The notes: a model not told the origin generated them from the letters alone. 52,475 bases of DNA from an uncultured Sandaracinaceae bacterium (GCA_964510015.1 CAZEAA010000004.1:1-52475), one strand, 5' to 3'; shown: positions 8,707 to 48,000, counted from the first letter of the stretch. A program made the numbers and translations.

Positions 8707-8716
8707 CGGAGACGCC

Positions 8717-18470: not shown

Positions 18471-18491
18471 GATGCACGAGGTGACCGCGAC

Positions 18492-20204: not shown

Positions 20205-21055
20205 ACAAGCGCTGGGTCATCAAGAAGGCCGCGCGCGGGGCGGTCACCTTCGGGTCACTGGCCAGCGGCGCGCTCGCGCTGCGCGGGGCCCTCGCGCGGG
20301 GTCCACGGGTGCGCGGGCTGACGTACCACCGCGTGGGCGACGACGCGCCGCAGGACCCCTTCTGCGTGACGCGCAGCGCCTTCGACGCGCAGATGCGGCT
20401 GCTGGCCGAGGAGGGCCGCGCGGTGTCGCTCGAGCAGGTGCAGCGCTTCGTGGCGGGGCGCGAAGACCTGCCCGATGGGGCGTGCCTCGTGACCATCGAC
20501 GACGGCTGCCTCAGCACGCTGACCGAGGTGCTGCCCACCCTGCGCCGCTGGGGCGTGCCGGCCGTGGCGTTCGTGAGCGCGTCCATCGTGGGCGGCGACT
20601 ACGAGGGCCTGCCCGAGCGATTCCTCACGTGGGACGAGCTGCGCACGCTGGACGAGAGCCCGCTCATCACCATCGGCTCGCACGCGCACACGCACCGCTC
20701 GCTGGGGCTCATGTCGGTGGACGACGCGCGCCACGAAGCGCTGCGCTCGCGCGAGACGCTCGAACGTGAGCTCGGCCACGAGGTGCGCTGCTTCGCCTAC
20801 CCGTTCGGCACGCGCGCGGACTTCAACCCAGTCACCGAGCGGGTGCTCGCGGACGCGGGCTACCACGTGGCGTTCAACTCCATGCACGGCACCATCCAGA
20901 AGGGCATGGATCCCATCAGCCTGCCGCGCGTGAAGATCGAGGGCGGTGAGCCGCTCGCCATGTTCGCGCTGCAGAGCCGCGGCGCCCTCGACGCGTGGCG
21001 CGTGGTGGACCAGAACCTCTACCGCTTGCAGCGCGTGCGCCGGGAGATCACGTGA
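20201..21055 (+). CDS. Polysaccharide deacetylase, NodB-homology domain (284 aa)
   Basis: GTG at 20201 overlaps the upstream stop (GTGA). Motifs VTIDDG, GSHAHTH, CFAYPFG. In frame with the tail of track ORF 18557..21055. Confidence 0.85.
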   Translation: MNKRWVIKKAARGAVTFGSLASGALALRGALARGPRVRGLTYHRVGDDAPQDPFCVTRSAFDAQMRLLAEEGRAVSLEQVQRFVAGREDLPDGACLVTIDDGCLSTLTEVLPTLRRWGVPAVAFVSASIVGGDYEGLPERFLTWDELRTLDESPLITIGSHAHTHRSLGLMSVDDARHEALRSRETLERELGHEVRCFAYPFGTRADFNPVTERVLADAGYHVAFNSMHGTIQKGMDPISLPRVKIEGGEPLAMFALQSRGALDAWRVVDQNLYRLQRVRREIT

Positions 21056-22237: not shown

Positions 22238-23275
22238 ATGTTGATGCGAAGCACCGAGACCCCTCCACTGCGCTCGAGCCGCCTCCCCGGCGTGCGCGTG
22301 GTGGGCTCCCTGTGCCTGCTCACCCTCGTGGCGGGCACGAGCCAGTGCAGCCGCCGCCCCGCCGACGAACCCAGCCACGAAGTCAGCAGCGATCCCGGCC
22401 GCGAAGTCAGCAGCGACGTCAGCAACGACGTCCGCAACGACGCCACCACCACCGCGCCGCGCGACACGCAGCCTCCCGGTGAGCTGCCGAACCCCCGGGC
22501 GCCGCTCACGAGCGCCAACGTCTTCTTCCTCGGGCACAGCCTGCAGGGCTGGCATGCGGCCGCGATGATCGCGAACTTCAGCGCGCACGCGGGCGTCACC
22601 TACCGCTACAAGTCCGCCATCGGCAACGGGGCCAACCTGATGTGGCAGTGGGACCACCCCACCACGGCCGAGGGGCACAACCCGCGCACCACGCTCGGCG
22701 CCGAGCCCTTCGACGTGCTGGTCATGACCGAGGCGATCCCACTCGCCACCCACGTGCAGTGGTCCGACAGCGTGGCCAACGCGGGCCGCTTCCTCGCGCT
22801 CGCGTACGCGCAGAACCCAAACGTTCAGGCCTATCTCTACGAGACCTGGCACTCGCGGAACGTGAGCGACTGGCGTGGGCAGCTCGACAGCGACCGCGCG
22901 CTCTGGATGTCCATCGTGAACGGCGTGAACGCCGCGCACCCCGGTCGCGACATGCTCCTGATCCCCGGTGGGCGGGCCATGGCCGCGCTGGTCGACCGCA
23001 TCGAGGCCGGCGGCGTGCCGGGCATCTCGAGCGTGGACGCGCTCTTCGTGGACGACATCCACCTGAGCGACACCGGCTGGTACTTCATCGCCATGGTGCA
23101 GTACGCCACCATCCTGCGGCGGTCCCCGGTGGGCCTGCCGGCCGCCACCACCAATCGCTTCGGCGTGGCCATCCCACCGCCTCCCGCCAGCGCGGTGCCC
23201 GTCATGCAAGCGATCGCGTGGCAGGTCGTGCTCGGCGATCCCTCGGCTGGTGTGGCCGCCACAGACGCGCCATGA
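22238..23275 (+). CDS. Exported SGNH/GDSL-like hydrolase or transferase candidate (345 aa)
   Basis: GGAGAGAAG lies 5 nt upstream of the ATG. N-terminal signal/anchor followed by a low-complexity linker. Block I-like FFLGHSL and block V-like DDIHLSDTGWYFIA. Paralog of 41041..42027. Confidence 0.6.
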   Translation: MLMRSTETPPLRSSRLPGVRVVGSLCLLTLVAGTSQCSRRPADEPSHEVSSDPGREVSSDVSNDVRNDATTTAPRDTQPPGELPNPRAPLTSANVFFLGHSLQGWHAAAMIANFSAHAGVTYRYKSAIGNGANLMWQWDHPTTAEGHNPRTTLGAEPFDVLVMTEAIPLATHVQWSDSVANAGRFLALAYAQNPNVQAYLYETWHSRNVSDWRGQLDSDRALWMSIVNGVNAAHPGRDMLLIPGGRAMAALVDRIEAGGVPGISSVDALFVDDIHLSDTGWYFIAMVQYATILRRSPVGLPAATTNRFGVAIPPPPASAVPVMQAIAWQVVLGDPSAGVAATDAP

Positions 23276-24653: not shown

Positions 24654-26300
24654 CTACCGCTGCCGCGCGAACACCACCACCTCGCGCGGCGCGAACGGCA
24701 GCCACGCCCCCGTCGTCCGGCGAGCGATCACCCGCGCGCCCTCCGGCGCCGCATACGCGACCGCGAACGGCGCCGCCGCGCGGTCCGCCAGCGCGTTCGT
24801 CCGCGGCGCGCCCGCGAACATCTCGGCGTGCTGCTGCTGGTAGTTGTCGTACTCGAAGCCCGCCTCGATCGGCACGTCGGGCTGGCTGCGCTGGTGCGCC
24901 TCGGCGAGCGCCCACACCGCGCGCTGCCCCGCGAGGTAGTCGTGCGTGGCCGCGGCGCTGAAGAGCGCGACGAGCAGCACCCACGCGAACGCAGGGCCTA
25001 GCAGCCGACGCGAGACCACAGGGACGTCCCGGAGCAGGAGCAACCCGGGGACGAGCGGCACCATGAAGAGCGCGTAGCGGTCGAAGTGCGCCCCGTAAGC
25101 CAGGGCGAACGGCGCGAAGCCGATCACCATCAGCGCCAGCAGAAAGAGGGCGTGCACCGACCGCGGCCCGCTACGGAAGTCGCGAGCCGCTCGTCCGAGC
25201 GCGTCGCCCACCAGCGCCGCCAGGGCACCGGCGCCCAGCGAGGCGAGCACCGTGATGACGAGCAGGACCGCCGCGGGGAGCGCCGGCGGAGCACCCGGCA
25301 GCGTGCGCGGGCCCACGGCGAGCCCCAGCCAGATGTTGCCCACGTCCTCGCGCGGGAAGCGCACGCCCAGCACCAGCAGCCCTCCCGCGAACAGCACACC
25401 CATCCCGAGCGCCGCCAGCAGCACCCCCCGATGCGTGCGCGCGCGGGCAGCCAGCAGCACCAGCAGCAGCGGCAGCAGCGAGAGCCCGAGGTGCAGGAAG
25501 AGGAAGCCGGTGCGCTCGAGGGGCAGCCGCAGCACCCCCAGGTGCAGGTGCGCGAGGTCCAGCAGCGCCTCCCGCAGGCCCGCGTCGCGCGTGTCGTAGA
25601 GCGCGGGCAGCCCGAGGTGGCGGTCGATCCACGCGCGGCTCAGCGGCAGCGACGCGCCCACGATCAGCAGCGGCGGCAACACGCGCAGCAGCGTGGACCG
25701 ACGGAGGCCCCAGCGAGCCGAGCCCGCGACGGCGAACGCCAGCGGCAAGATCAAGCCGACCTGCCGCACGAGCGTGGCCAGCACCGCGAGCAGCGTGCCC
25801 ACCACCAGCGGCGTCGTGCGCCCGCTGTCGAGCGCGCGCATCAGGCAGAGCGAGCTCGCGAGCAGCAGCGTCACGAACGGCACGTCGGTCATGAAGGTGT
25901 GCGACAGCGCCACGTAGACCGGCTGCGCCAACAAGCAGCTCGCGCCGAGCAGCGCCACGGGGGCGGCGACACCGCGCTCACGAAGCAGCCGGAACGCGAG
26001 GCCGACGCCGAGCCCTCCCAGGACCAGCGTGGAGACCCGCAGCGCCGTGAAGGAGAAGCCGAAGGGCAAGCAGAAGAGCGCCCCCCACCCCAGTTGCGGC
26101 AACAGCGGCATGCTCTGCCAGAAGGTCAACCGCAGGTCGCCCTGCTCGACCCAGCTCTTCACCGGCAGCGAGTAGGCCCAGTCGTCGTTGAGCGGCAGCT
26201 CGGCCACCGGGTTCGCGATCAGCGCCACCAGCACCCACGCTACGGACAGCGAGACGCTGGCCGCGCGGTCGGACAGGGGGCGGTCGAGGAGTGCCTGCAT
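24654..26300 (-). CDS. Polytopic membrane protein, GT-C (family 39/83-like) glycosyltransferase candidate (548 aa)
   Basis: Start at MQALLDRPL. First-loop motif LNDDWAYSLP, more than 10 hydrophobic segments, and a soluble C-terminal domain. Confidence 0.6.
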   Translation of the reverse strand: MQALLDRPLSDRAASVSLSVAWVLVALIANPVAELPLNDDWAYSLPVKSWVEQGDLRLTFWQSMPLLPQLGWGALFCLPFGFSFTALRVSTLVLGGLGVGLAFRLLRERGVAAPVALLGASCLLAQPVYVALSHTFMTDVPFVTLLLASSLCLMRALDSGRTTPLVVGTLLAVLATLVRQVGLILPLAFAVAGSARWGLRRSTLLRVLPPLLIVGASLPLSRAWIDRHLGLPALYDTRDAGLREALLDLAHLHLGVLRLPLERTGFLFLHLGLSLLPLLLVLLAARARTHRGVLLAALGMGVLFAGGLLVLGVRFPREDVGNIWLGLAVGPRTLPGAPPALPAAVLLVITVLASLGAGALAALVGDALGRAARDFRSGPRSVHALFLLALMVIGFAPFALAYGAHFDRYALFMVPLVPGLLLLRDVPVVSRRLLGPAFAWVLLVALFSAAATHDYLAGQRAVWALAEAHQRSQPDVPIEAGFEYDNYQQQHAEMFAGAPRTNALADRAAAPFAVAYAAPEGARVIARRTTGAWLPFAPREVVVFARQR

Positions 26301-26361
26301 GGTGACCCGGAGGGAGCGTCTTGGGGCATGGCGCGCCCCCCGGCAAGTCACGCACGCAGGC

Positions 26362-29532: not shown

Positions 29533-30567
29533 TCAGTTGTCGGCCGTGAGCGTGCCCCACTCGACCACGCGCAGGTTCGAAAGGACCAGGCTCGCGGTGG
29601 TGCCGCTCTCGAGCACGCCGTCGTAGGCCTCGCGCGCCTCGGCCGAGCCGTCGGCGTACACGTTGATGGAGCCCGAGAAGTCACCCACGTAGGCGCCGTA
29701 GACCTGCAGCGCGCGCGCGATGGTGCGCCCCGCTGGCGAGAGGCCCAGCGTGCTGACGTCGAGCGTGGGGTCCAGCTGGATGCGGCCGCCGCAGGGGATG
29801 CCCTCGGTCTCGGAGATGCTCCCGTTGGCCGGGTGACCCGTGCTGGCGGGTGACACGAACCAGCGCTGACGAATGCCCGGATAGCCCAGCACCAGGGCGT
29901 GCGGGATCTCGCCGGCTTCGAGCTCTGCCGCTGTGATCAACCCCGCGATCAGCGGGAAGCCGCAGGCGCGCGAGCCGTGCGAGGCGTACCACGCGCTCGG
30001 GCCGCCCTTGGGTGGGCGCACGCCGCTGCCGCGCAGGTCCACGCTGCTGCACAGCGTGCAGTCCCAGCCTCCGTCGCTGCGCGGGCGCCCTTGGAAGAAG
30101 TCGTAGGCGCGGCCGGCGTCCACGTCCACCAGCGTGAGGTGGCCGTCCCCCGCCGGGGCCGCGAGCGCGCCGGCCGGCACCGGCCAGCGGAGCGTCACGT
30201 TCTCGCCCTCGTTGCTGAGCGGCGTGTGCACGTCCACGCGCGGCGTGCTCGCGTTCACCCAGTAGACGGGCACGCTCCACGGGTGGATGGACACGCTCAG
30301 CCCCGGCCACTCGGAGCTCGCGGCGAGGTGCTGCACCAGCGTGGCGCTGTCCGGCCGAAGGGCGACGCCCGCGGGGATGGGCGTGTTCCACGGGCTGCTG
30401 TCCGCGAAGGGGCGAAACGTGTCGGGGGGCGGCGGCCGCTGGGGGTCGACCGTCACGCCGTGCTCGGGGGAGCCCGCGGCCCCGCTGCACGCCACGATGA
30501 GCGCCGCGGCAGCGCCCACACCGACGATCGCGGAGAGCGCCGAGACGGCCCGGAACCGCAGGGTCAC
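29533..30567 (-). CDS. Lipoprotein, unknown function (344 aa)
   Basis: Lipobox LIVAC. Last gene of the minus-strand operon, with a 4-nt overlap with the upstream gene. I recognise no motif. Confidence 0.65.
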   Translation of the reverse strand: MTLRFRAVSALSAIVGVGAAAALIVACSGAAGSPEHGVTVDPQRPPPPDTFRPFADSSPWNTPIPAGVALRPDSATLVQHLAASSEWPGLSVSIHPWSVPVYWVNASTPRVDVHTPLSNEGENVTLRWPVPAGALAAPAGDGHLTLVDVDAGRAYDFFQGRPRSDGGWDCTLCSSVDLRGSGVRPPKGGPSAWYASHGSRACGFPLIAGLITAAELEAGEIPHALVLGYPGIRQRWFVSPASTGHPANGSISETEGIPCGGRIQLDPTLDVSTLGLSPAGRTIARALQVYGAYVGDFSGSINVYADGSAEAREAYDGVLESGTTASLVLSNLRVVEWGTLTADN

Positions 30568-31079
30568 GACCGCTCCGAGGGCGGTAGCGCGCCCGAGTCC
30601 ATGAAGTGGCGGATGGCGTCGAACAGCGGCCCCTCACGGAGCGCCGGCTCGGCCACACCCGCCGCGGCGCGCACCTGCGCCGCGAGGCGCTCGAGACCCG
30701 CCGACAGCTCGCGCTCGTCCCACACCACCACCACGCCCGGACGCTCGCCGAAGCGCCGCGCGGTGGCGAGCTGATGGTCGTTGCGGGTCTCGCGCAGCTC
30801 CGCGCGACGCGGCAGCACCAGCACGGGCTTGCCCCGCTCGAGGGCCGCGAAGAGGGTGCCGATGCCCGCGTGCCCCACGAGCGCGTCGGCCTCGTCGCAC
30901 GCTCGCTCGAAGCGCGCAGGCTCGAGGAAGCGCTGCGCCCGGAGGTGAGGCGTGGCCAGCGTGGTGTCGCCCACCTGCGCCGTGACGCGCGCGCTCGGGT
31001 TCGCCGCCGCCCACGCATCCATGGCCTGCACGAGGCGGTCGAAGGGCATCTGCGCGCCCACCGTGAGGAGCAGCTTCAT
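30564..31079 (-). CDS. Alg13-like glycosyltransferase catalytic subunit (Glyco_tran_28_C type; 171 aa)
   Basis: Start at MKLLLTVGAQMPFDRL, with an ATGA overlap with the Alg14-like gene. Motif HAGIGTLFAALERGKPVLVLPR..NDHQLATA. Confidence 0.8.
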   Translation of the reverse strand: MKLLLTVGAQMPFDRLVQAMDAWAAANPSARVTAQVGDTTLATPHLRAQRFLEPARFERACDEADALVGHAGIGTLFAALERGKPVLVLPRRAELRETRNDHQLATARRFGERPGVVVVWDERELSAGLERLAAQVRAAAGVAEPALREGPLFDAIRHFMDSGALPPSERS

Positions 31080-31579
31080 CCGAGCACGCTCCCCGCGAAG
31101 CGCGGGCCGCCGGGGCGCGCCAGCTCGGGCCACTGCGTGAGCCACAGGTCCGCGAAGCGCCCCACCTTCTGCCCGCTCATGCTGAGCTCGTCCACGTTGG
31201 CCAGGCTGTCCACCCAGATGGTCCGGGCGCCGAGCGCGCGCCCCAGCACCACGCCGAAGAAGCCGGGCAAGGCGCCCGTGCTGACCACCACGTCGGGGCG
31301 CTCGTCCAGCAGCACGCGCAGCACCTGCGTGGCGCAGCGCAGCATCCCGAGGCGATCCCAGCGGGTGGTGTCCGGCACCACGCGCAGCGGCGCGTCGCCC
31401 ACGTGGGCTCGGTAGGCCTCGTCCACCGTCACGAACACCATGAAGTGCCCGTCGAAGGCGGGCCGCAGGCGCAGCAGCTCCACGAAGTGCCCGCCCCCCG
31501 AGCTGATGGCGAGCACCTTCTGACGGCGGCGTCCTTCGGCGCTCGCGGCGGCGCTCGCGCTAGCGTGACGACGGCTCAT
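31076..31579 (-). CDS. Alg14-like membrane-associated glycosyltransferase subunit (167 aa)
   Basis: Motifs VLAISSGGGHFVELL, VVVSTGALPG, IWVDSLANVDELSMSGQ. Pairs with the Alg13-like gene, as in PssD/PssE and Cps14F/G. Confidence 0.85.
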   Translation of the reverse strand: MSRRHASASAAASAEGRRRQKVLAISSGGGHFVELLRLRPAFDGHFMVFVTVDEAYRAHVGDAPLRVVPDTTRWDRLGMLRCATQVLRVLLDERPDVVVSTGALPGFFGVVLGRALGARTIWVDSLANVDELSMSGQKVGRFADLWLTQWPELARPGGPRFAGSVLG

Positions 31580-31581
31580 GC

Positions 31582-33636
31582 TCAGCCCGCGAAGCCCGAG
31601 AGGAATTCGTCCACGTTGCCGGCTCGGTCGTTCTGGCGAGCCACCGCGTCCGACACCGCCAGCAGCGCGAAGGCCACGCCGCCGTCGAGGGCCAGCTCAC
31701 GCCGCACCCGCCGCAGCTCGGAGGCCTTGATGCCCGCCCCCACCAGGACGATCACGCCATGCGAGCGGCGCGCCGCGCGACGCAGACCGGCGACGCCGCG
31801 CGGGCCGTCCCAGGTGCAGGTGCGGACCCGCAGCGCGTGCGTGATACGGATGCCCCCCGTCTCATCGTTCGCCAGCACCGAGGTGAAGCCACCGGACGGG
31901 CTCACGCGCGGGCGCCGCGCCATGGGCAAGACGTTCCCGATGACGTGACGCTCCGGCTCGCCGGGCACGCTCGGGGGGTGCGTGGACACACTGCCGGCAC
32001 CCGTCTGCGCGCTGCGCACGGGGGCCATCACGGTCTCGTTCTCTTCCTGGAGCACCCCGCGCCAGGTCTGACGGATGACCAGCGTGAGCATCTCGGCCAG
32101 CTGCCGCTCGACCTCCGTGGCGCCCACCAGCAAGAGCTCGCCGCGCTTCTCGCCCATGAGCGCCTCGAGGTCGGCCAGGAGGTCTTCGAAGGCCTCGCTG
32201 TTGCGCGGCCAGCTGGAGGTGGCCACCACCGGGCCCTCACCCCACCAAGCGATCTCCGTTGGCGCGATCAGCCGCAGCCCGTTCAGGTCGCGCCCCACCA
32301 CCACCAGCAGCGCCAGCAGGCCGAAGATCAACGGCACGCCCAGCGCGATGAGCTTCTTCTTCTTCGACGGGACCGCGTTCTCGGGCGGGATGGCGTTCGA
32401 CACCGTGCGGAAGCCGGTGGGGATGTCGTGCAGCTGGTCGTCGATGGTGGCGGCGCGCTCGGTCAGGCTCTCCACCAGCGCACCCTTCACGTTCACCTGC
32501 GCCAGCAGGCTCGCGGCCTGCGACTCGATGTCGCTGAAGCGGTTGCCACGCTCCTCGGCCGCCGTGGCCAGCTGCTCGAGGGTGGTCTGGCGGGAGACCA
32601 GGGTCTCGAGCTCGGTCTGTGCCGTCTCGAGGCTGGTGCGGCGCGCGGACGAGACGCCCCCCGACCCGCCACCGCTGCCGGACGTGGTCCCCGAGGCGTC
32701 CTCCGCTGAACCCTCGCGCTGCTGCCGCTCGAGCGCGGCGACCTGCCGCTGGAGCGACTGGATCTGCGGGTGCGAGTCGCCGAGGCCCTGCCCGCGCGCC
32801 TCGCGCAAATGCTGGCGGAGCTCCACCAAGCGCGCGTCTTCGATGCGTCGGCTGGCGCTGTTCGCGCCGCTGCTGCTGCTGGTGCCGGTGCCCCGCGAGC
32901 GTGAGGCCCCTTCGATGGACGCCGTCAGCTGACGCACCCGCGCGCGCGCCGCCTCCACCTCCGCGGCGGCCAGGGTGGCCTCGGTGCGCAGCTGCGCGGC
33001 CTGCGCGATGACCTGCGACTGCTCCACGTTCATCTCGCTGATGCCGTGCTCCGAGCGGAACGTGTCGTAGGCGGTGCGCGCGTCGTTCAGCTCCACGGCC
33101 GTGGCGGCGATGCGCTCCGACACGCTGGCCTGCTCGGTGCGCAGCGAGGCCTCGCGTTGCTCCGTGATGTGCTGCAGGAAGAGCACCACCGCGTCGTTGG
33201 CCAGCGCGGCCGCCTGCTCGGGCGTCTCACCGTATGCGTTGAAGCTGATCTGACGCGTGCCCTGGTCGGCGGACACCTGCAAGATCGCGCGCATGGCGTC
33301 CACGTGGATGCGCTGGAGGCCCGCGCGCTCGCGCATCTCGAGCACGAAGCGGTCGGTGAGCGCCACCGAGGCGAGCGAGGGCAGGTCCTGCTGCGCCTCG
33401 AGGAAGCTCTGGCCGGGGAGGCCTTCGTAGCGCACCACGGCCGACGTCAGGTACGCGCGGCCGATCACGAACTTGGCCACCACGACGCCGATGACGAGGC
33501 CCACCAGCGCCGCGCCGAGCACCCACTTCTTCCCGCGCCAGACCACGCGGACCAGGCGACCGAGATCGAGCGGCGAGCCGGGCCGCTTCGTGCCGCCCTC
33601 CTCGTCATCCATGTCTTGTTGTGATCGTGGGCTCAT
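31582..33636 (-). CDS. Polysaccharide co-polymerase (Wzc-like PCP) with a degenerate C-terminal kinase-like domain (684 aa)
   Basis: TM1 at about aa 38-56, a long coiled-coil periplasmic region, and TM2 at about aa 429-447. The C-terminal 234 aa has an EAF segment but no GxxxxGK[ST] and no Tyr at all. Confidence 0.8.
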   Translation of the reverse strand: MSPRSQQDMDDEEGGTKRPGSPLDLGRLVRVVWRGKKWVLGAALVGLVIGVVVAKFVIGRAYLTSAVVRYEGLPGQSFLEAQQDLPSLASVALTDRFVLEMRERAGLQRIHVDAMRAILQVSADQGTRQISFNAYGETPEQAAALANDAVVLFLQHITEQREASLRTEQASVSERIAATAVELNDARTAYDTFRSEHGISEMNVEQSQVIAQAAQLRTEATLAAAEVEAARARVRQLTASIEGASRSRGTGTSSSSGANSASRRIEDARLVELRQHLREARGQGLGDSHPQIQSLQRQVAALERQQREGSAEDASGTTSGSGGGSGGVSSARRTSLETAQTELETLVSRQTTLEQLATAAEERGNRFSDIESQAASLLAQVNVKGALVESLTERAATIDDQLHDIPTGFRTVSNAIPPENAVPSKKKKLIALGVPLIFGLLALLVVVGRDLNGLRLIAPTEIAWWGEGPVVATSSWPRNSEAFEDLLADLEALMGEKRGELLLVGATEVERQLAEMLTLVIRQTWRGVLQEENETVMAPVRSAQTGAGSVSTHPPSVPGEPERHVIGNVLPMARRPRVSPSGGFTSVLANDETGGIRITHALRVRTCTWDGPRGVAGLRRAARRSHGVIVLVGAGIKASELRRVRRELALDGGVAFALLAVSDAVARQNDRAGNVDEFLSGFAG

Positions 33637-33646
33637 GCTGCTCTCC

Positions 33647-38320
<4,674 letters not shown>

Positions 38321-38335
38321 TCCTCCTGCGGCGGC

Positions 38336-39370
38336 TCAGCGCGGGTTCGTGCTGATCACCGCGGCGCCCAGTCCGGTGGTGGCCGCCACGCTCACCAGCG
38401 GCGCGATGGCCGACATCACGTCGCGCAGCTTGGAGAGCCCGCTGGCCCCCACGTAGACCACGTCGCCGGGCGCGAGGAGGGGATCGGGCCCCGTGCCCTC
38501 CAGCAGCTCGTCGAGGCGCGCGACGTAGACCTGCGGTGCGGCGTGGTCACCGCGCACCACGATGATCTCGGCGTGGTCCGCGTCGCGCGTAGGGCCGCCC
38601 GCGAAGGCGAGCGCGAGCGTGAGGCGCAGGCCCGGGCGGAACGGCATGACGCGCGCGGCGTTCACTTCCCCCAGCACGCTCACGAGCGAGTGCACGGCGG
38701 GCGGAACGTAGAGGTGGTCGCCCGGGCGCAGGCGCACGTTGTGCCGCGGGTCCCCCGTGATGGCGAGCGCGAGGCTGACGGGCAGCACCTGACCGTTGCG
38801 CACGAGCCGCGCGCCCTCGACGTCGGTCATGGAGACGGAGACTCCGTCGGTGTCTTCGCTGATGCCGCCTCCCGAGAGCGCGAACAGGTCTGCGAGGCGC
38901 ATGCCGGGCACCACGGTGTGACGTCCGGGCGTGGTGACCGCGCCGATCACCGTCGCGCGCTGACCGTTGGGCGCCGCGACGATGATGGTCACGCGCACCG
39001 TCTGATCGAAGGGCCGCATGGCCGTCTCGATACGGCCCTCGGCGTCGGTCAACGACAGGCCGGCCACGTCCACGTCGCCCGCGAGCGGCACGTGCAGCAC
39101 GCCGCGCTCGTCCACCGTGAGGCCCAGGACGGCAGACTCGGTGCCGCTGATCATCTGCAGGTTCACCACGTCGCCGGGCATCAGCGTGAGCGCCAGCGGC
39201 GGGTCTTCGTCGAGGCCCGTCAGCGCCGAGGGCGCTGCCTGTACGAATCCAGTTTCGGCGGATGGCGTGGTGGGAAGGGGCGGAAGCGAGCTCCCGCATC
39301 CGGCGCTGACGACGCCGAGCAGCGTGGCCAGCATCGCATAACGTGGGCCGGTATACGGGGATGTAGGCAC
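38336..39370 (-). CDS. Outer-membrane polysaccharide export lipoprotein (Wza-type OPX; 344 aa)
   Basis: GTG start at 39370. Lipobox VVSAGC. Poly_export-like LMPGDVVNLQM, then SLBB-like repeats (VIGAVTTPGRHTVVPGMRLADL; VLGEVNAARVMPFRPGLRLTLA), and a hydrophobic C-terminal helix. Confidence 0.85.
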   Translation of the reverse strand: MPTSPYTGPRYAMLATLLGVVSAGCGSSLPPLPTTPSAETGFVQAAPSALTGLDEDPPLALTLMPGDVVNLQMISGTESAVLGLTVDERGVLHVPLAGDVDVAGLSLTDAEGRIETAMRPFDQTVRVTIIVAAPNGQRATVIGAVTTPGRHTVVPGMRLADLFALSGGGISEDTDGVSVSMTDVEGARLVRNGQVLPVSLALAITGDPRHNVRLRPGDHLYVPPAVHSLVSVLGEVNAARVMPFRPGLRLTLALAFAGGPTRDADHAEIIVVRGDHAAPQVYVARLDELLEGTGPDPLLAPGDVVYVGASGLSKLRDVMSAIAPLVSVAATTGLGAAVISTNPR

Positions 39371-39589
39371 CGCACCTAGCTAGCGCTGAACTTGACCGGC
39401 GGCAAGGCGCCCAACGTGATCTTTTACCGTGAAACAGGCTCGTTGCGGCCCGCTCAGGGGGTCTCGTGCGCTTGGAGTGGATTTCACTCTCACCGTCAAG
39501 TTTCTGCGCGGCGCTCAAGAATTTAGTGGCCGGATCGGAGAGAGTGACCCAAGGTGCCCCCGTGTAGTTTTTCGCCTACGCCGCCCCCT

Positions 39590-41026
39590 ATGCCCCTCTT
39601 CGACCCCACCAAGACCGGCATCATCCGCCCCTACCACTCCATGCTGACGCTGGTGCAGCGTGCGCTGGATGTCGTGATGATCGTCGTCGCGCTGTGGCTG
39701 ACGATGGTGGCCTTGGAGGATCTGAGGGCCCCCGACCCGTGGCACATCCACGACACGCTGGCCGCCGGCGCGGCCTCGCTGCTCTTCCTCTTCGCGGCCG
39801 ACGCCTGCGGTCTGTACGAGGGCTTCCGCGGCGTGCCCATGGTGCAAGAGCTCAAGCGCGTGTGGCTGGCCTGGTTCATCGTCTTCGCCGGGCTGCTGAT
39901 GCTGGCCTTCGCGTTGAAGGAGTCGGCCACCTACAGCCGCGCCGTGGCCTTCGGCTGGATGCTCGGCGCGCCGCTGCTGGTGAGCGTGTGGCGCGCGCTG
40001 GTGCGCCTCGCCCTGCACGAAGCGCGGCGCCGCGGCCACAGCACGCGTCGCGTGGCCATCGTGGGCATGACGCAGCTCGGTGAGCGCGTCGCGCGCAGCA
40101 TCAACGGCGCGCCGTCGCTCGGCCTGCACTTCGAGGGCTTCTACGACGACCGCAAGGAAGACCGCCGCCACGCCATCGGCGCCGAGGTGGGGGACTACGC
40201 GGGCACCTTCGACGAGCTGGTGGCGCGCGCCACGCTGGGCGACCTCGACCTGGTGTACGTCTGCTTGCCGCTGCGCGCCGAGTCGCGCGTGCACAAGCTC
40301 ATCGCCGAGCTGGCCGACACCACCGTGAGCGTCTACGTGGTGCCCGACTTCTTCGTGTTCGACCTGCTGCACGCGCGCTGGACCTCGCTCGGCGACATCC
40401 CGGTGGTCAGCATCTTCGAGACGCCCTTCATGGGCACCGAGGGCTGGCTCAAGCGCTTCGAGGACATCGTGCTCGGCACGCTCGCCGTGCTGGTGGCCGC
40501 CATCCCCATGGCCATCGTGGCCATCGGCATCAAGCTCACCAGCAAGGGCCCCGTGCTCTTCAAGCAGCGGCGCTACGGCCTCCATGGCGAGGTCATCGAC
40601 GTCTACAAGTTCCGCTCCATGACGGTGGCCGAAGACGGCACCAACGTGAAGCAGGCCACCGCGAACGACAGCCGCATCACGCCCTTCGGCGCGTTCCTGC
40701 GGCGCACCTCGCTGGACGAGCTCCCGCAGCTCTTCCACGTGGTCTCGGGCAGCATGAGCCTGGTGGGCCCGCGCCCGCACGCCGTCGCGCACAACGAGGC
40801 CTACCGCAAGCACATCTACGGGTACATGCTGCGCCACAAGGTCAAGCCGGGGCTCACGGGCTGGGCGCAGGTCAATGGCTGGCGCGGTGAGACCGACACG
40901 CTCGAGAAGATGGAAAAGCGCATCGAGCACGACCTCGAGTACATCCGCCGGTGGAACCTCCTGCTCGACATCAAGATCGTGTTCCTGACCATCTTCGGTC
41001 GCGCGGTGCATCAGAACGCGAAGTGA
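39590..41026 (+). CDS. Undecaprenyl-phosphate hexose-1-phosphate transferase (WcaJ-type large PHPT; 478 aa)
   Basis: Four N-terminal TM segments and a central Rossmann-like domain ([11 protein letters not shown]). C-terminal catalytic domain: [45 protein letters not shown]. Alternative GTG start at 39554 (GGAGAGAG 9 nt upstream). Confidence 0.9.
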
Positions 41027-41040
41027 GCCGGGTGGGCCGC

Positions 41041-42027
41041 ATGTCCCGCCGCAAGACCCTCGGGGTGCTGCTCGCGCTGGGCTCGGCGTTGCTGGGCGGA
41101 GTGGGCCTCGCCGTGAGCCGGCGCGTGCACAAGCTGTGGGTCATCCCCGAGGCACCCAGCCGCAGCATGAGCACGGCCGCCTGGGCCGAGACGCCGCCGG
41201 TGCAAAGCCTGCACGTGCTCTTCGTGGGCCACAGCCTGGTGAACCAAGACATGCCCGCCATGGCGCGCGGGGTGGCGGCCAGCCTCGGCGTGGACCTCAC
41301 CTACGACGTGCAGCTCATCGACGGTGGCTCGCTCGCGGTGAACTGGAACCAGGCGCAGCGCGCCACCGGCGTGCGGGCACGCGAGGCGCTGCTCACCGGC
41401 GGCTACGACACGCTGGTGCTGACCGAGGCCGTGAACTTGGACGACCACCTGCGTTGGAGTGAGCCGAGCCATCACGCCGCGCTGTGGTACGCGCTCGCCC
41501 GCGAGCACCGGCCGGACGCGCGCCTCTTCTTCTACGAGACCTGGCACCACCGCGACCAACCGCGCCACGTGCGGGGCCTGCCGCTGGTGCAGAGCCGCAT
41601 GAGCTGGCGTGAGCACCTCGACGCGGACCTCGGCAAGTGGGAGCACATCGTGGACGAGGCGGAGCGCGAGTACGCGACCTTCCATGCGAGCACGCCGCTG
41701 CACGTGGACATCGTGCCGGGTGGCCAGGCGCTCGCGGCGCTGGTGGACGCGGTCCGCGCGGGGCAGGTGCCCGGCGTGCCGAACGAGGCCCTGCTGTTCC
41801 GCGACAACGTGCACCTCACCGACCTCGGCAACTACTTCATCGCGCTGGTGCAGGTGGCCACGCTGGCCCGTGTGAGCCTCGATGGTGCCACCAACCAGGT
41901 AACGCGCGGCGACGGGCAGTCGGTCGTGGTGCCAGCTGAGACCGCGCGCGCGCTCGCTCGCATTGCCCAGCGTGCGGTCCGCCTCTATCCCCGCTCGGGC
42001 GTGCTGAGCCCACCGGAGCCGAACTGA
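41041..42027 (+). CDS. Exported or anchored SGNH/GDSL-like protein, paralog of 22238..23275 (328 aa)
   Basis: N-terminal TM/signal (LGVLLALGSALLGGVGLAV). Motifs LFVGHSLVNQDM, LVLTEAVNL, FFYETWHHR, VPGGQALAALVDAVRAGQVPG and RDNVHLTDLGNYFIALV align segment by segment with the other copy. Confidence 0.6.
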   Translation: MSRRKTLGVLLALGSALLGGVGLAVSRRVHKLWVIPEAPSRSMSTAAWAETPPVQSLHVLFVGHSLVNQDMPAMARGVAASLGVDLTYDVQLIDGGSLAVNWNQAQRATGVRAREALLTGGYDTLVLTEAVNLDDHLRWSEPSHHAALWYALAREHRPDARLFFYETWHHRDQPRHVRGLPLVQSRMSWREHLDADLGKWEHIVDEAEREYATFHASTPLHVDIVPGGQALAALVDAVRAGQVPGVPNEALLFRDNVHLTDLGNYFIALVQVATLARVSLDGATNQVTRGDGQSVVVPAETARALARIAQRAVRLYPRSGVLSPPEPN

Positions 42028-42029
42028 TC

Positions 42030-45000
42030 ATGTCCGACGAATACGAAGTCATGGAGCGCGACATCGCCGTCGTCGGGATGGCGGCGCGGGTGCCCGGGGC
42101 CAACACGCCCGCCGAGCTGTGGAAGAACCTGGTGGGCGGTGTGGAGTCCATCCGGCAGTACAGCGAAGAGGAGCTGCGCGCGGCCGGCGAGAAGCCCGAG
42201 CTGCTGCGCCACCCGCGCTACGTGCGCGCCGCCGCCCCGCTCGCGGGGGTGCCCCTGTTCGACGGGGAGTTCTTCGGGTTCAGCCCGAAGGAGAGCGCCA
42301 TCATGGACCCGCAGCACCGGCACTTCCTCGAGTGCTCGTGGGAGGCCCTCGAGAACGCCGCCCATCCGCCCGAGCGCTTCAAGGGCCCCATCGGCGTGTT
42401 CGCCGGCTGCGGCATGGGCAGCTACTTCTACGTGAACGTCTGCTCGCAGGCCGAGCTGGTGCGCGACGTGGGCCTGTTCCTGCTGCGTCACACGGGCAAC
42501 GACAAGGACTTCCTCGCCACGCGCGTGAGCTACCTGCTGGACCTCGCGGGGCCTTCGGTGAACGTGCAGACGGCCTGCTCCACGTCACTCGTGGCCACGC
42601 ACCTCGCGGTGCAGAGCCTGCTCGCGCGCGAGTGCGACATGGCGCTCGCCGGCGGCGTCACCATCGAGCTGCCGCAGGACCGCGGCTACGTCTACCAAGA
42701 GGGCGAGGTGCTCTCGCCCGACGGACACTGTCACGCCTTCGACCACCGCGGTCAGGGCACCGTGTTCGGCAGTGGTGTGGGCGTGGTGGTGCTGCGCCGC
42801 CTGGGCGACGCGCTCGACGACGGCGACGTGATCCACGCCGTGATCCGCGGCACCGCCGTGAACAACGACGGCGCGAAGAAGGTGAACTACCTGGCGCCCA
42901 GCGTGGACGGACAGGCGGCCTGCGTGGTGGAGGCCCTGGGCGTGGCCAACGTGGACGCGCGTAGCGTGGAGTACATCGAGTGCCACGGCACCGGCACCGC
43001 GCTCGGCGACCCGATCGAGGTGGAGGCGCTCACGCAGGGCTTCCGCACGCAGACCGACGCGCGCGGCTTCTGTCAGCTCGGGTCCATCAAGACCAACATC
43101 GGGCATCTCGACACGGCTGCGGGGGTCATCGGGCTGATCAAGGCGTCGCTCGCGCTGCGCCATGCGCAGATCCCCGCGTCCCTCGGGTACGAGAAGCCCA
43201 ACCCCGCCATCGACTTCGCGAGCTCGCCGTTCCGGGTCGCGAGTCAGCTGTCGGAGTGGCCGGCCCCCGCGGCTCACCCGCGCCGCGCGGCCGTGAACTC
43301 GCTCGGCGTGGGCGGCACCAACGCGCACATCGTCTTGCAAGAGCCACCCGGCCTGCCCGACGCCGAGCCACCCACGCGCCCCGTGCAGCTGCTCACGCTG
43401 TCGGCGCGCACGCGCAGCAGCTTGGACGCGCAGAGCCAGCGGCTCGCCGAGCACTTCACCGCACACCCGGACCTGTCCCTCGCGGACGCGGCCTTCACGC
43501 TGCACCACGGGCGCCGTGAGTTCGCGGAGCGGCGCGTGGTGGCGGCGGCATCGCTCGCCGAAGCGGCCGAGCTGCTGCGCACGGGCGACCCGCAGCGGGT
43601 GTTCACGCACAGCGTGCTGCGCGGCAAGACCGAGAGCGGCGCCCCGCACGTGGCCTTCCTGCTGCCAGGCGGCGGCGCGCAGTACGCGCGCATGACGGTG
43701 GACCTCTTCGAGCACGAGCCCGTGTTCCGCGAGCACATGGAGCGCGGCTTCGCGCTCTTGCAGGAGCGCCATCAGGTGGACCTTCGCCCGCTGCTGTACC
43801 CCGCGCGGGGGCAAGAGGCCGCGGCCGACGCGGAGCTGACGCCCATGAATCGGCAGCTGCCCGCCATCTTCCTCACGAGCGTGGCCATGGCGCGCCTGTT
43901 CGAGAGCTGGGGCGTCACCCCGAGCGCGTACCTCGGTCACAGCGTGGGCGAGAACACCGCCGCGCACTTGGCTGGCGTGATGACGCTCGAGGACTGCCTG
44001 GGCCTGGTCATGCTGCGCGCTCAGCTCTTCATGGAGACGCGGCCGGGCGCCATGCTGTCCGTCACGCTGTCCGAAGCCGAGGTGCGCGCGCTCCTGCCCA
44101 GCACCCTGGACCTCGCCGTGGTCAACGGCCCGAGCGCCTGCGTGGTGTCGGGCGATCCGGAGGCCATCGCGGCGATCGAGGCGCAGCTCGCCGGGCGCGA
44201 GGACGTGGAGACGCAGCGCTTGGCCATCCCGGTGGCGGCGCACTCGCGCCTGCTCGACCCGATCCTCGAGCGCTTCACCGCGTACCTCTGCAGCATTCGC
44301 CTGCGCGCGCCCAGCGTGCCCTTCCTGTCCAACCGCAGCGGCACGTGGATCACCGACGCCGAGGCCACGGATCCCACCTACTGGGCCAGCCACCTGCGCA
44401 GCGCGGTGCGCTTCGGGGACAACGTGGACGCGCTCTTGCAGCGCGGCCCGAGCGTGCTGCTGGAGGTGGGCCCCGGCCGCGCGCTCAGCTCGCTCGCGCG
44501 TCAGCACGCGGGCTTCCGCGCGGGGGGCCATCAGGCCATCGCGTCGGTGCGGCACAAAGACGAGGTGGTCTCGGACGTCACCTACTTCACCGCCTGCCTC
44601 GGCCGGCTGTGGGCCACCGGCGCCGCGCTCGACTGGGCGCCCATGTGGCCGGGCGAGCTGCGCTCGCGCGTGGAGCTGCCCACCTATGCGTGGGACCACA
44701 AGAGCTTCTTCATCGAGCCCGCGCTGCCCGTGAACGCGCCCAGCGAGCAGGCGCTCGAGAAGCTGCCCGACGTGCGCAGCTGGGGCTTCGTGCCGCGCTG
44801 GAAGCCCTCGCTCGCGGACCTTCCGCTCGAGGGCAGCGAGCCCGACGCGCCGCGCACCTACCTGCTGTTCATGGACCGGGGTGGCGTGGGGCAGCGCCTG
44901 CGTCAGCGCCTCACCCAAGCGGGCCAGCACGTGGTCGCGGTCTACGAAGGCGACGCCTTCCATCACCGCGGCAACGACGAGTACACGCTCAGCCCGGAGC

Positions 45001-48000
45001 GCGGGCGCGAGGGCTATGCCTCGCTGATCACGGACCTGGTGGAGCGCGGGCGCACGCCGGAGCGCGTGGTGCACCTGTGGCTGCTCGAGGCCGAGCAGAC
45101 GTTCCGTCCGGGCTCGAGCCTCTTCCACCACCACCTCGAGCGCGGCTTCTTCAGCCTCTTCTTCCTGGCCAAGGCGCTGGTGGACGCCAGCATCGCGAAC
45201 GTGCACCTCACGGTGATCGGCGATGGCCTCGTGCGCGTGGTCGACGAAGCGCTGCCCGACCCGCAGAAGGCCACCGTGCTCGGTCCGGTGAAGGTGCTGT
45301 CGCGCGAGCTCGAGGGCGCGAGCGCGCGGCTGGTGGACGTGCAGCTGCCGGCCCAGCGCAGCCAGCTCTTCGGTGGCTCGCTGCGCGCGGGCTTGCTCGA
45401 CCCGTTCGGTGGCAAGAAGCGGGTGGAGCAGGAGCTCGACGCGCTGACCGAACGCTTGGTAGATGAAGTGCGCGCCGCGGCGGGCGACGAAGTGGTGGCG
45501 CTGCGCGGTGACCGGCGCCTCACGCAGGTGCTGGCTCCGCGGGCGCTCGAGGAAGTCGCCGGCCCGAACGGCATGCCCACTCCAGAGGCCGCTGCTGGTC
45601 TCGGGAGACCCGAGTATGGGAGCACTCTCGGAAAGCCCGAGACCCTGCGCGAGCGCGGCGTCTACCTGATCACCGGCGGCCTCGGCGGCCTGGGCCTCAC
45701 CGTGGCCGACTACCTGGCGCGCACGTGTCACGCACGCCTCGCGCTGCTGGGACGCACGCCGCTGCCCGCGCGCGACCAGTGGCTCGCGTGGATCGCGCAG
45801 CACGGCGCGGGGGACCGCGTGAGTCAGCGCATGCAGCGCGTGCTGGACCTCGAGGCGAGCGGCGCCGAGGTGCTGGTGCTGACGGCGGACGTCACCAACC
45901 GCGAGGAGATGCAGGCCGCGCTCGGCACGCTGCACGCGCGCTTCGGGGCGCTGCACGGCGTGTTCCACACGGCCGGCGAGCTGGACGACGACCTCATCGC
46001 GCTCAAGACGCTCGAGAGCGTGGAGCAGGTCTTCGCGCCCAAGATCCAGGGCACGCGCATCCTGCACGAGCTGACCGCCGAGAGCCGCCTCGACTTCATG
46101 CTGCTCTTCAGCTCCACCTCCACGGTCACCGCGCCCGCGGGGCAGGTGGACTACGTGGCCGCCAACGCCTTCCTCGACGCATTCGCCGAAGGCCAGCGCG
46201 CCGCGGGCTCGCCGGTCACCTCGCTGCACTGGGGCATCTGGGCCGACGTGGGCATGGCCGCCGAGCCTGGGCGCCTGCGGGCTCACGCGCGCGTGGGTGA
46301 CCGGGTGGGGCAGCAGCCCACGCACCCGTGGCTGAGCGCGCGCGTCAGCGACGGCCGCGGCGAGTCCAGCCTGCGCGGCACGCTGTCGTCCGCGCAGCAC
46401 TGGATCCTGGACGGGCACCGCACGCTCGCCGGCCACGCGCTGATCCCCGGCACCGGCTACCTCGAGCTCGCGCGCGCCGCGCTGCGCGCCTACGGCGAGA
46501 CGGGGCCGTTCGAGATCGAGGACCTCTTCTTCGTCCGCCCCTTCGCGGTGGCCGATGGCGAAGCCCGTGAGCTGTTCGTAAAGCTGCGGCCCACCGCGCG
46601 GGGCTATCGCTTCGAGGTGCGCGGGCACGTCAGCGTGGGTGGCCGGGCAGGCACGGTGCTCATCGCGCAGGCGCACCTGGCGCTGCAGCTCGCCGCCGCC
46701 CCGGCCGACCTCGGCGCGGCGGAGCTCGCCGACATCGAGGCGCGCTGCACCACGAGCCATCTGGGACCTGTGGGCCCCGACGAGAGCGGCCTGCGCACGG
46801 CGCAGGAGGCGCACCTGCGCTTCGGGCCGCGCTGGCGCGTGCTGCGCGAGGCGCACCTCGGCCGCACCGAGGGCATCGCGCGCTTGGCGCTGCCGCCGCC
46901 GTTCACCGCCGAGAGCAGCGAGTTCGGCCTGCACCCCGCCCTGCTCGACATCGCCACCGGCTGGGCCATGTCCCTGATCGAAGGCTACGACGCGAGCACC
47001 CTCTACGTGCCCGTCTCCTACGAGCGCGCGCGCGTCTACCACGACCTCACGCCGCAGCTGCTGAGCTGGGTGCGCACGCCCGTGGTGAACCACGCCGACG
47101 CGGAGTTCGTGTTCTTCGACGTCACGCTCATGGACCCGAGCGGCAGGGTGCTCATGGAGGTGGAGCGCCTCGGCCTCCGGCGCATGAGCGGCGGCCCGGA
47201 CTTCGCGCTCGGCGGGCGCGTGGCGCCGACGGACGTGACCTTCCACGAGGACAGCAGCGAGCACGCCCCCTCGCCCGGTGAGGCGCTGCGCGACCGGCTC
47301 TTGCAGCAAGGCATCCGCACGGCCGAAGGCCAGGACGCCCTCGGCCGCGTGCTGCAGCAGCTCGCGCCGAAGTCTGGCGGGGCGCCCGCGCAGATCTTCG
47401 TGAGCTCCATGGACCTCCCCACGCTGGTGAAGCAGAGCAGCGCGGGCGAGAAGGCGCGCAGCGCCGGAGCCGGGCTCGAGCTGGCGCGCCCGGACCTGGG
47501 CGTGGACTACGTGGCCCCGCGGGACGAGGTGGAGAAGACGCTGGTGGGCTTCTGGCAAGAGCTGCTGGGCGTGGACCAAGTGGGCGTGCAGGACAGCTTC
47601 TTCGACCTCGGCGGTCACTCGCTCTTGGCGGTGCGCCTGTTCGCCAAGATCAAGTCGGCCTACCGCGTGGAGTTCCCCATCTCGGTGCTGTTCGAGGCGC
47701 CCACCATCGAGCGCTGCGCGGCGCTCTTGCGCGAGCACCTCGGGCCGCAGACCGACGTGGAAGGCAGCGCGGACGTGAGCGCGCCGAGCACCGCCGCGCG
47801 CCCGCGCTACACGCACCTCGTGGCCATGCACACCGGCGACGGAGGGCCCAAGACGCCCTTCTTCCTGGTGGCCGGCATGTTCGGCAACGTGCTCAACCTG
47901 CGGCACCTCGCGCACCTGGTGGGCACCGACCGGCGCTTCTACGGCCTGCAGGCGCGCGGCCTCTACGGGGAGCAAGCGCCGCACGAGACCTTCGAAGAGA

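Follow-up and report, generated by a model that had tools for sequence, protein, structure and literature searches.

What does an enzyme of the nonribosomal peptide synthetase (NRPS) type do in the middle of an operon for polysaccharide export? The question is raised by a 52,475-nucleotide stretch of DNA from an uncultured Sandaracinaceae bacterium (GCA_964510015.1, CAZEAA010000004.1:1-52475; the whole stretch is called the window below). Here the gene for a 1557-aa thiotemplate protein (33647-38320, minus strand) is the second of six in an operon, and lies between the genes for a Wza-type outer-membrane polysaccharide export (OPX) lipoprotein (38336-39370, minus strand) and a polysaccharide co-polymerase (PCP) of the Wzz family (31582-33636, minus strand). 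The first-pass annotation of this DNA took the protein for a carrier-protein-dependent enzyme that occupies the place of the Wzb phosphatase. The position and the carrier domain are as it described, but the enzyme is not an isolated one: it appears to be the loading module of a two-protein line composed of an NRPS and a polyketide synthase (PKS), and it is hereafter referred to as the loader. On balance we favour the reading that this line makes a small formylglycine-derived acyl unit which is joined to an exported surface glycan.

The loader has the architecture F-C'-A-T, that is, a formyltransferase (F) domain, half a condensation (C) domain, an adenylation (A) domain with a glycine code and an inserted luciferase-like monooxygenase (LLM), and a thiolation (T) domain. 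Pfam gives matches to Formyl_trans_N and Formyl_trans_C, to an AMP-binding model split by Bac_luciferase, to AMP-binding_C and to PP-binding. The formyltransferase domain, with N and C subdomains, takes up aa 1-300 (37421-38320, minus strand). When a profile of 27 loader-family members was searched against the PDB sequences, residues 20-307 matched the complete formyltransferase domain of ArnA (E 5e-37), FMT (7e-32) and the F domain of LgrA (1e-22). The catalytic triad N103/H105/D141 aligns to N102/H104/D140 of ArnA and is invariant in an alignment of full-length loader homologs (41/41). The segment that follows (aa ~322-565; 36626-37357, minus strand) is a condensation-domain remnant consisting of the C-terminal lobe and the C-A linker: loader residues ~322-571 match only residues ~190-475 of the C domains of Txo2 (E 7.5e-19), Txo1, McyB and EntF. 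It is the least conserved part of the family, and the HHxxxD motif is absent from it in every member of the 41-homolog alignment.

The adenylation domain (aa 566-801 and 1152-1440; 34001-36625, minus strand) is interrupted after core A4 by a flavin mononucleotide (FMN)-type LLM of the MupA/Atu3671 kind (aa 802-1151; 34868-35917, minus strand). Accordingly, the AMP-binding match falls into two parts (aa 570-783, profile positions 1-241, and aa 1164-1370) and is split at profile position 241; TIGR04020 scores 485.6 bits on the loader, the cut-off being 244. The specificity code D-I-L-Q-M-G-M-I-W-K is almost invariant in the family, as is, without exception, the A-domain lysine; we take the code to be close to the published glycine codes DILQLGLIWK and DILQLGMIWK. 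The protein ends in a thiolation (peptidyl carrier) domain (33764-33955, minus strand; PP-binding 2e-14), whose GGHS serine, Ser1483, is invariant in the alignment. The loader contains no thioesterase (TE) domain, no full C domain that could discharge the cargo and no membrane segment, and it is predicted to be without condensation or release activity of its own. In combination, these features point to an N-formylglycine loading module of the OzmO/CongA kind, a chemistry predicted by analogy. With aa 1-565 (F plus half C) as the query, phmmer against 1.84 billion representatives returned 1,386 clusters at E<=1e-30, the proteins being ~1,550 aa long with the monooxygenase, ~1,200 aa without it, and up to 4,364 aa when multimodular. 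It thus seems that F-A-T loaders generally contain half a condensation domain, a feature not described before.

The probable partner lies 3.7 kb from the loader, in a divergent operon of four plus-strand genes with gaps of 14, 2 and -4 nt. Its third gene encodes a type I PKS of 2208 aa (42030-48656), which is assigned from Pfam and active-site motifs as ketosynthase-acyltransferase-ketoreductase-dehydratase-thiolation-thioesterase (KS-AT-KR-DH-T-TE). The KS Cys/His/His, the AT serine and the KR catalytic Tyr are present together with a B-type KR motif (LDD); the carrier domain has a peptidyl-carrier-like GGHSL motif and the TE is of the NRPS type (GFSGG). This PKS begins with the KS and has no loading domain; its starter must therefore arrive bound to a carrier, for which the 1557-aa protein is the evident source. 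The two proteins would accordingly be the loading half and the extension and release half of one line, the handover of cargo being predicted from the genomic linkage.

The remaining genes of this operon belong to glycan assembly or accompany it. The first (39554-41026) encodes a WcaJ-type polyprenyl-phosphate hexose-1-phosphate transferase, a priming phosphoglycosyltransferase (PGT), with TIGR03023 at 532 bits, above the cut-off, and matches to Bac_transf and CoA_binding_3. The second (41041-42027) encodes a membrane-anchored 328-aa protein that has no Pfam model. An AlphaFold 2 (AF2) model built on an alignment of 29 homologs (pLDDT 94.4) displays an SGNH/GDSL fold behind an N-terminal membrane helix, an invariant GHSL...DxxH is found, and Foldseek with the model returned DUF4886 (E 8e-9), GDSL esterases and the peptidoglycan O-acetyltransferase PatB. 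A paralog, likewise membrane-anchored, is encoded in the window at 22238-23275 (plus strand), and homologs stand beside the cassette in Rhizobiaceae, Rhodobacterales, Xanthobacter and Hydrogenophaga, i.e. in Alpha- and Betaproteobacteria. The fourth gene (48653-49600) encodes a 315-aa family 2 glycosyltransferase (GT2; Glycos_transf_2) without a sequence relative in the PDB; its orthologs, at 45-58% identity, adjoin the PKS or the loader in 17-18 loci from Alpha-, Beta- and Gammaproteobacteria, Myxococcota, Spirochaetaceae and Planctomycetota. The two operons have in common a divergent intergenic region of 183 bp (39371-39553), in which several blocks (GACCTTGGGTCA, AAACTTGAC, CTTGCCGC and GCGCTAGC) are identical to those of a 77%-identity relative, locus L004; these blocks are candidate regulatory sites shared by both operons.

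That the loader and the PKS belong together is apparent from their distribution. Exact-protein look-ups of homologs and one scan of 185,579 species genomes gave 88 related loci (L001-L088). Among the 55 loci bearing the F domain, tblastn with the window proteins placed the PKS within 10 kb of the loader in 43, mostly directly downstream of it, and most of the exceptions are contig ends or belong to the clade with the Wza-loader-PCP order. The linkage was found in Myxococcota, Chloroflexota, Planctomycetota, Spirochaetaceae, Actinomycetota, Acidobacteriota, Rhizobiaceae, Rhodobacterales, Hydrogenophaga and Cellvibrionaceae, so that the two genes lie side by side or near each other in eight phyla or more. 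Ruegeria sp. ANG-R (L079), Algicella (L002), Planktotalea (L026), Paracoccus (L056) and Hydrogenophaga have the layout PKS-GT2-loader-PPTase, where PPTase denotes a phosphopantetheinyl transferase; the window loader, PKS and GT2 are 47-58% identical to those of Ruegeria ANG-R and Algicella. This layout is that of an orphan four-gene cluster of NRPS, PKS, glycosyltransferase (GT) and PPTase from marine Roseobacters (Martens et al.), reportedly flagged since 2007 as conserved and without a product. Of 57 Roseobacter genomes, 28 share the cluster, and its product is described as uncharacterised (PMC4337385). Our literature search found no later paper that assigns a product to the cassette, only statements of its uncharacterised status; the roseoceramide cluster was considered as the source of a product and rejected, the paper being concerned with a different cluster. 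Neither the wide distribution of the cassette nor its earlier description as an orphan cluster (PMC4337385) had been noticed in the first-pass annotation.

The neighbourhood of the cassette was surveyed by clustering every open reading frame (ORF) of the 88 loci independently of the window, followed by Pfam annotation. The recurring neighbours are an Sfp-type PPTase (22 loci), the cassette GT2 (18 loci), a Wzx-type flippase (Polysacc_synt_3; 15 loci), a PGT (14 loci), PssE and PssD (14 and 12 loci, PssD co-occurring with the cassette in 12 of 55), a GMC oxidoreductase (13 loci), GT4 enzymes (11-12 loci), an EpsU-like GT2 (11 loci), a WecG-type GT (9 loci) and the 328-aa SGNH protein (9 loci). 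Given these recurring glycan genes, the cassette sits in lipid-linked glycan assembly machinery in many lineages. Of the components of a Wzx/Wzy-dependent pathway, the window itself carries PGT, PCP and OPX, but no Wzx homolog and no recognised Wzy; a Wzx gene comes right after the PCP gene in L005, L006 and L008.

An alternative is that the PKS supplies a hydrophobic anchor rather than a substituent. The PKS, with KR and DH and without an enoylreductase (ER), would in that case act iteratively and build a polyene or unsaturated chain from the formylglycine starter, and the GTs would assemble a glycolipid or an anchored capsule on top of it. The placing of KR before DH speaks for this, an order which resembles that of iterative synthases of the polyunsaturated fatty acid and enediyne types, and so does the frequent presence of GT2 and PssD/E beside the pair even where no PGT is visible. 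A precedent is the role proposed for WcbR, a type I PKS in the capsule locus (CPS-I) of Burkholderia pseudomallei which is required for capsule production (PMC3735121). However, the PKS operon is headed by a WcaJ-type PGT, by which a polyprenyl-linked route is already supplied, and the PKS has a single carrier domain, no ER, no product-template features and no sequence sign of iteration. We consider an anchor improbable.

All six minus-strand ORFs were found in the order and at the positions given by the first-pass annotation, with matching domains and a coding-type third-position G+C (GC3) of 0.90-0.95. Genes were chosen by GC3 (0.90-0.97) and homology because long spurious ORFs are frequent at a G+C content of ~70%, as in the window; an ORF of 1870 aa at 33767-39379 (plus strand), antisense to the loader and wza, is by its codon-position G+C pattern a high-GC artefact and no gene. 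The closest proteins are from metagenome-assembled genomes (MAGs) of Sandaracinaceae (Myxococcota); the best match of the loader, at 88% identity, is from one of them, and the exact protein has no entry in the contig index. The window itself appears to be one complete metagenomic contig. The first gene of the operon is recognised as OPX by Poly_export (4.5e-13) and SLBB/SLBB_2; these Pfam matches exceed the gathering score, whereas the NCBIfam export-protein matches stay below the cut-off, and the lipobox in the N-terminal ...VSAGC motif was assigned by eye. Downstream of the PCP gene follow a PssD/Cps14F/Alg14-like glycosyltransferase subunit (31076-31579; Alg14, PssD 69 bits, WelK), a PssE/Cps14G/Alg13-like subunit (30564-31079; Glyco_tran_28_C, PssE 81 bits) and, as the last gene, a lipoprotein of no detectable family (29533-30567) with a visible lipobox, LIVAC, all on the minus strand. 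Pfam, NCBIfam and PDB searches with this lipoprotein gave no match, its single-sequence AF2 model was unusable (pLDDT 34), and tblastn found it kept only in the closest relative, L004 (74% identity).

The spacing of these genes is operon-like, with a Shine-Dalgarno sequence at each junction. The stop codon (TGA) of wza is followed by 15 nt (gccgccgcAGGAGGA, which holds AGGAGGA) and the GTG of the loader, the TGA of the loader by 10 nt (GGAGagcagc) and the ATG of the PCP gene, and the TGA of the latter by 'gc' and the ATG of pssD; pssE and the lipoprotein gene overlap by the 4 nt GTGA. The loader start is ambiguous within six codons (GTG 38320, or ATG 38308/38302). The gaps of 15, 10 and 2 nt and the 4-nt overlaps can be read directly as the first-pass annotation had them, except that the 4-nt overlap of pssD and pssE requires a pssE start at ATG 31079 (MKLLLTVG...), the one inferred here, instead of GTG 31145 of the longest ORF. 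A scan for sigma-70-like promoters and intrinsic terminators predicted none at any junction; this is weak evidence in a myxobacterium of 70% GC, where the scan was uninformative overall (0 promoters; terminator-like sites at shuffle level). Likewise, the search for insertion scars around the loader gave only short repeats at chance level, and no tRNAs, flanking repeats or compositional break.

The order itself is not confined to this strain. A hidden Markov model search of all loci located an OPX gene directly upstream of the loader and in the same orientation in L001 (Sandaracinus amylolyticus), L004, L005, L006, L007, L015, L084 and L085, and a PCP gene after the loader in L001, L004-L008, L084 and L085. 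The synteny survey that the first-pass annotation had suggested thus recovers the Wza-loader-PCP order in a Sandaracinaceae-like clade, in nine assemblies, and an arrangement unique to this strain, which it had named as an outcome that would count against its reading, is not what was found. Both divergent operons recur with the same gene-by-gene layout in L004, an independent MAG at 77% identity, and the order in L004 and seven further assemblies makes it neither chance nor an assembly artefact. Conversely, the junctions are looser in the relatives: the gaps measure 30-230 nt, and L007 has a PPTase gene between the loader and PCP genes. Consequently, the tight, 'stoichiometric' coupling read from the window is not conserved, even though the spacing and Shine-Dalgarno sequences of the window itself fit one transcript. 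S. amylolyticus has the PKS-GT2 pair ~20 kb further downstream, in the same supercluster.

The history of the arrangement was examined with a neighbour-joining tree of 54 loaders. The six OPX/PCP-flanked loaders that passed the ORF filter (the window, L001, L004, L007, L084 and L085) form one clade. Its sister group comprises L015, which also has OPX upstream, together with alpha- and betaproteobacterial loaders (Roseobacter, Rhizobiaceae, Hydrogenophaga), and the clade is separate from the other Myxococcota loaders, in whose loci the loader stands beside the PKS. A single clade with loader identities of 55-88% indicates that the order arose once, is old and is no strain-specific insertion, and the absence of recent insertion noted in the first pass agrees with both the flanking sequence and the conservation in relatives. 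The tree suggests, in addition, that this type of cassette was exchanged between Proteobacteria and a Sandaracinaceae-like myxobacterial lineage.

The PCP is one of the points at which the first-pass annotation does not hold. It had called the protein Wzc-like, and the loader the occupant of the Wzb slot. The layout wza-wzb-wzc is that of the enterobacterial group 1 loci and is not known to be a general rule, nor one for Myxococcota. The PCP has a Wzz domain (6.3e-9) and a TIGR03007-like region at aa 136-439, and Pfam and NCBIfam detect no other domain. Hydrophobic segments are visible at aa ~38-58 and ~428-448, on either side of the Wzz-family periplasmic domain with its long coiled region. 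The C-terminal 237 aa (aa 448-684) have no Pfam match even at E<=5, and neither similarity to Walker motifs or a kinase nor a GxxxxGK[ST] motif was seen there; in the PDB search, Wzc chains aligned only at aa 21-80, and weakly (WzzE/Wzc). A degenerate Wzc kinase was considered and rejected, as Pfam (E<=5) and the PDB give it no sequence support. No bacterial tyrosine kinase (BY-kinase), phosphatase, Wzb or Wze was found among the window ORFs scanned. A PCP without a BY-kinase leaves no Wzb role for another enzyme to take over.

This bears directly on the proposal that a self-contained carrier-protein enzyme has replaced Wzb, works directly with the export machinery, perhaps aminoacylating the polymer while it is translocated, and needs to be co-expressed stoichiometrically. 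Tight spacing, Shine-Dalgarno sequences, junctions free of terminators and an order kept in relatives would all fit such an enzyme. However, the PCP has no kinase, the loader is cytoplasmic, lacks a membrane segment and has neither a C nor a TE domain with which to discharge its cargo, its constant partner is a KS-led PKS, and in relatives the junctions are gaps of 30-230 nt or contain a PPTase gene. We regard this proposal as very improbable, the least likely of those weighed here.

For the favoured reading, a formylglycine-derived unit on an exported glycan, the following route may be envisaged. The A domain would load glycine onto the T domain, and the F domain would N-formylate the T-bound glycine from 10-formyl-tetrahydrofolate, as in OzmO, CongA and LgrA. 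For the loaders of oxazolomycin, conglobatin and rhizopodin, which are of the form F-A(Gly)-peptidyl carrier, an N-formylglycyl thioester on the carrier that is extended by a KS has been proposed, and for LgrA formylation of the tethered amino acid has been shown in vitro (PMC4504003). The embedded FMN monooxygenase would then oxidise the tethered unit, most plausibly at the alpha carbon; LLMs of the TIGR04020 type and related FMN monooxygenases act on intermediates tethered to a carrier, which they oxidise or hydroxylate, in many cases at the alpha position (PMC8739492, PMC13638107). The KS would accept this starter, one malonyl unit would be added, and KR and DH would process the product. 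The TE would release a C4 formamido(-hydroxy)-enoyl acid or a cyclised derivative, or transfer the unit. GT2, PssD/E and other GTs would incorporate or carry the unit on a PGT-primed, undecaprenyl-linked glycan, to be flipped by Wzx in the relatives; to judge by the neighbours, the unit would either be attached to a glycan or begin one. Outside the cytoplasm, the SGNH proteins and a nearby deacetylase-family protein may trim or move acyl or formyl groups, and the PCP and Wza would export the decorated polymer. With the loader and the PKS split over two operons around the 183-bp control region, production of the unit would be coupled to glycan priming and export. WcbR of Burkholderia (PMC3735121) is a precedent for this reading too, as a type I PKS encoded in a capsule locus and required for making the polymer. 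An oxazole in the style of conglobatin or oxazolomycin was considered and rejected as the default product. The motifs SGG[KR]DS and SGGxDS are absent from the six-frame translation of the window and from the ORFs of the 88 related loci, and in the absence of a CongE/OzmP-like gene from the window and these loci a conglobatin-type oxazole is unsupported.

Several observations weigh against a glycan-bound product. In L086 the loader-PKS pair stands alone between unrelated genes, with no glycan genes near, and in Chloroflexota it is found amid other NRPS/PKS modules; another MAG has the PKS-GT2 pair 60 kb from the loader. No PPTase or Wzx, and no recognisable Wzy, was found among the ORFs of the 52-kb window that were scanned or probed, and the DH motif of the PKS deviates from HxxxGxxxxP and DxxxQ/H. 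Transcription of the loader together with wza and the PCP gene is predicted from their spacing. No acyltransferase for joining the unit to a sugar was identified, and that the TE or the SGNH proteins do so is a guess. All chemical steps are inferred, because no product is known for any member of the cassette (PMC4337385).

The L086 and Chloroflexota loci make a free small-molecule product a serious rival. The line would on that account produce a small diffusible secondary metabolite, for example a formylglycine-derived heterocycle or gamma-amino acid, which might be glycosylated by the GT2, and its position in the operon would reflect co-regulation or genomic hitch-hiking. A second NRPS lies near the cassette in Hydrogenophaga, the TE is of the ordinary hydrolytic NRPS type, and the Roseobacter cluster is classed in the literature as a secondary-metabolite biosynthetic gene cluster (BGC; PMC4337385). 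Against this, Wzx, PGT, PssD/E, GT2, GT4, WecG and SGNH neighbours recur in several phyla, the loader has been kept between OPX and PCP despite divergence to 55% identity, and no efflux transporter typical of BGCs stands beside the cassette in the window. We therefore judge a free metabolite unlikely, albeit less so than an anchor. Beyond the window, and more tentatively than for the window itself, a surface-glycan product may be extended to a pathway that crosses phyla, in which a thiotemplate-made, oxidised C4 formylglycine unit is placed in a lipid-linked surface glycan exported by Wzx, PCP and OPX. The Roseobacter cluster would then be a surface glycoconjugate pathway and no antibiotic BGC, with the Sandaracinaceae layout as its clearest genomic signature. 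If this is true, surface glycans would gain a non-sugar building block of a new class, and assembly-line enzymology a new type of coupling with glycan export, and the classification of such 'BGCs' in genome mining would be redirected; should it prove wrong, the locus nonetheless exemplifies clearly how a secondary-metabolite line is co-regulated with exopolysaccharide (EPS) export. A long-standing cluster of unknown product here acquires a specific and testable surface-glycan hypothesis, that of a polysaccharide substituent made by a thiotemplate line.

Other features of the window may belong to the same locus. A second carrier-protein system occupies 18219-21055 (plus strand) and consists of a carrier protein of ~80 aa (18219-18470), a DltA-like amino-acid adenylating enzyme (18492-20204; TIGR01733 343 bits, above the cut-off) and, as the last of the triad, a Polysacc_deac_1 protein (20201-21055). 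S. amylolyticus and L085 have kept the triad, which suggests a Dlt-like aminoacylation, or a deformylation or deacetylation step, in the same supercluster. Further upstream, a 381-aa protein is followed by an AurF-like di-iron oxygenase (7561-9613, plus strand). The supercluster of S. amylolyticus shares this pair (52% and 58% identity), which stands there next to the triad of carrier, ligase and deacetylase genes, so that ~7.5-49.6 kb of the window may make up the functional locus. The two proteins encoded at 9630-11513 (plus strand) and 24654-26351 (minus strand) are large polytopic membrane proteins, one with PMT_2 (ArnT/GT-C-like) matches and the other of no family, and could be periplasmic glycosyltransferases or stand-ins for a polymerase that escapes recognition. 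Between the carrier/ligase genes and the upstream redox genes lies a lipoprotein gene (15609-~18070, minus strand) with many Cys-rich repeats of the 'CDxxDNDCD' type, which we take to be typical of secreted proteins of myxobacteria. Taken as a set, the two polytopic membrane proteins, the formyltransferase domain, a GT2 and a deacetylase-family protein loosely recall the Arn pathway of Ara4N.

The locus may be compared with known systems of two kinds. From the side of polysaccharide export, it shares OPX, a Wzz-domain PCP, a WcaJ-type PGT and several GTs with the group 1 capsule and colanic acid loci (wza-wzb-wzc) and with the Wzx/Wzy EPS loci of Myxococcus, but its PCP has no BY-kinase, a thiotemplate loader separates OPX from PCP, and the window ORFs scanned yielded no Wzb, Wze, Wzx or Wzy. 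With the CPS-I locus of B. pseudomallei, which encodes WcbR, it has in common a type I PKS inside a surface-polysaccharide locus, a likeness of locus context; CPS-I is an ABC-transporter-dependent capsule, and we know of no formyltransferase-A-T loader in that locus. From the side of assembly lines, the loaders OzmO and CongA, that of rhizopodin, and LgrA (F-A-T, formyl-valine) likewise have an N-terminal formyltransferase with an intact N-H-D triad, and those of the OzmO/CongA type also a glycine-type code and a carrier domain before a KS-led PKS. The window loader differs from the latter in the FMN monooxygenase inside the A domain and the half C domain between F and A, its partner is a single PKS module, its context is glycan assembly and export, and it is not accompanied by a cyclodehydratase of the OzmP/CongE type. 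A domains interrupted by a monooxygenase (MOx) are known from MtaG (myxothiazol) and MelG (melithiazol), where, as in the window loader, the LLM/MOx lies between A4 and A5 of a glycine-type A domain. MtaG and MelG, however, are terminal C-A(MOx)-T-TE modules in which glycine is sacrificed and a terminal amide is left, whereas the window loader is an initiating F-C'-A(MOx)-T module that lacks a TE, has a half C domain devoid of HHxxxDG and receives no upstream chain which could be amidated. The orphan Roseobacter cluster (PMC4337385) has loader, PKS and GT2 of the same families; it differs from the window in its PPTase, a gene absent from the ORFs of the 52-kb window that may lie elsewhere in the genome. 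What is already known is the cassette as such; here, it is split over two divergent operons and interleaved with genes for glycan priming and export, namely those for OPX, PCP, PGT, PssD/E and SGNH proteins.

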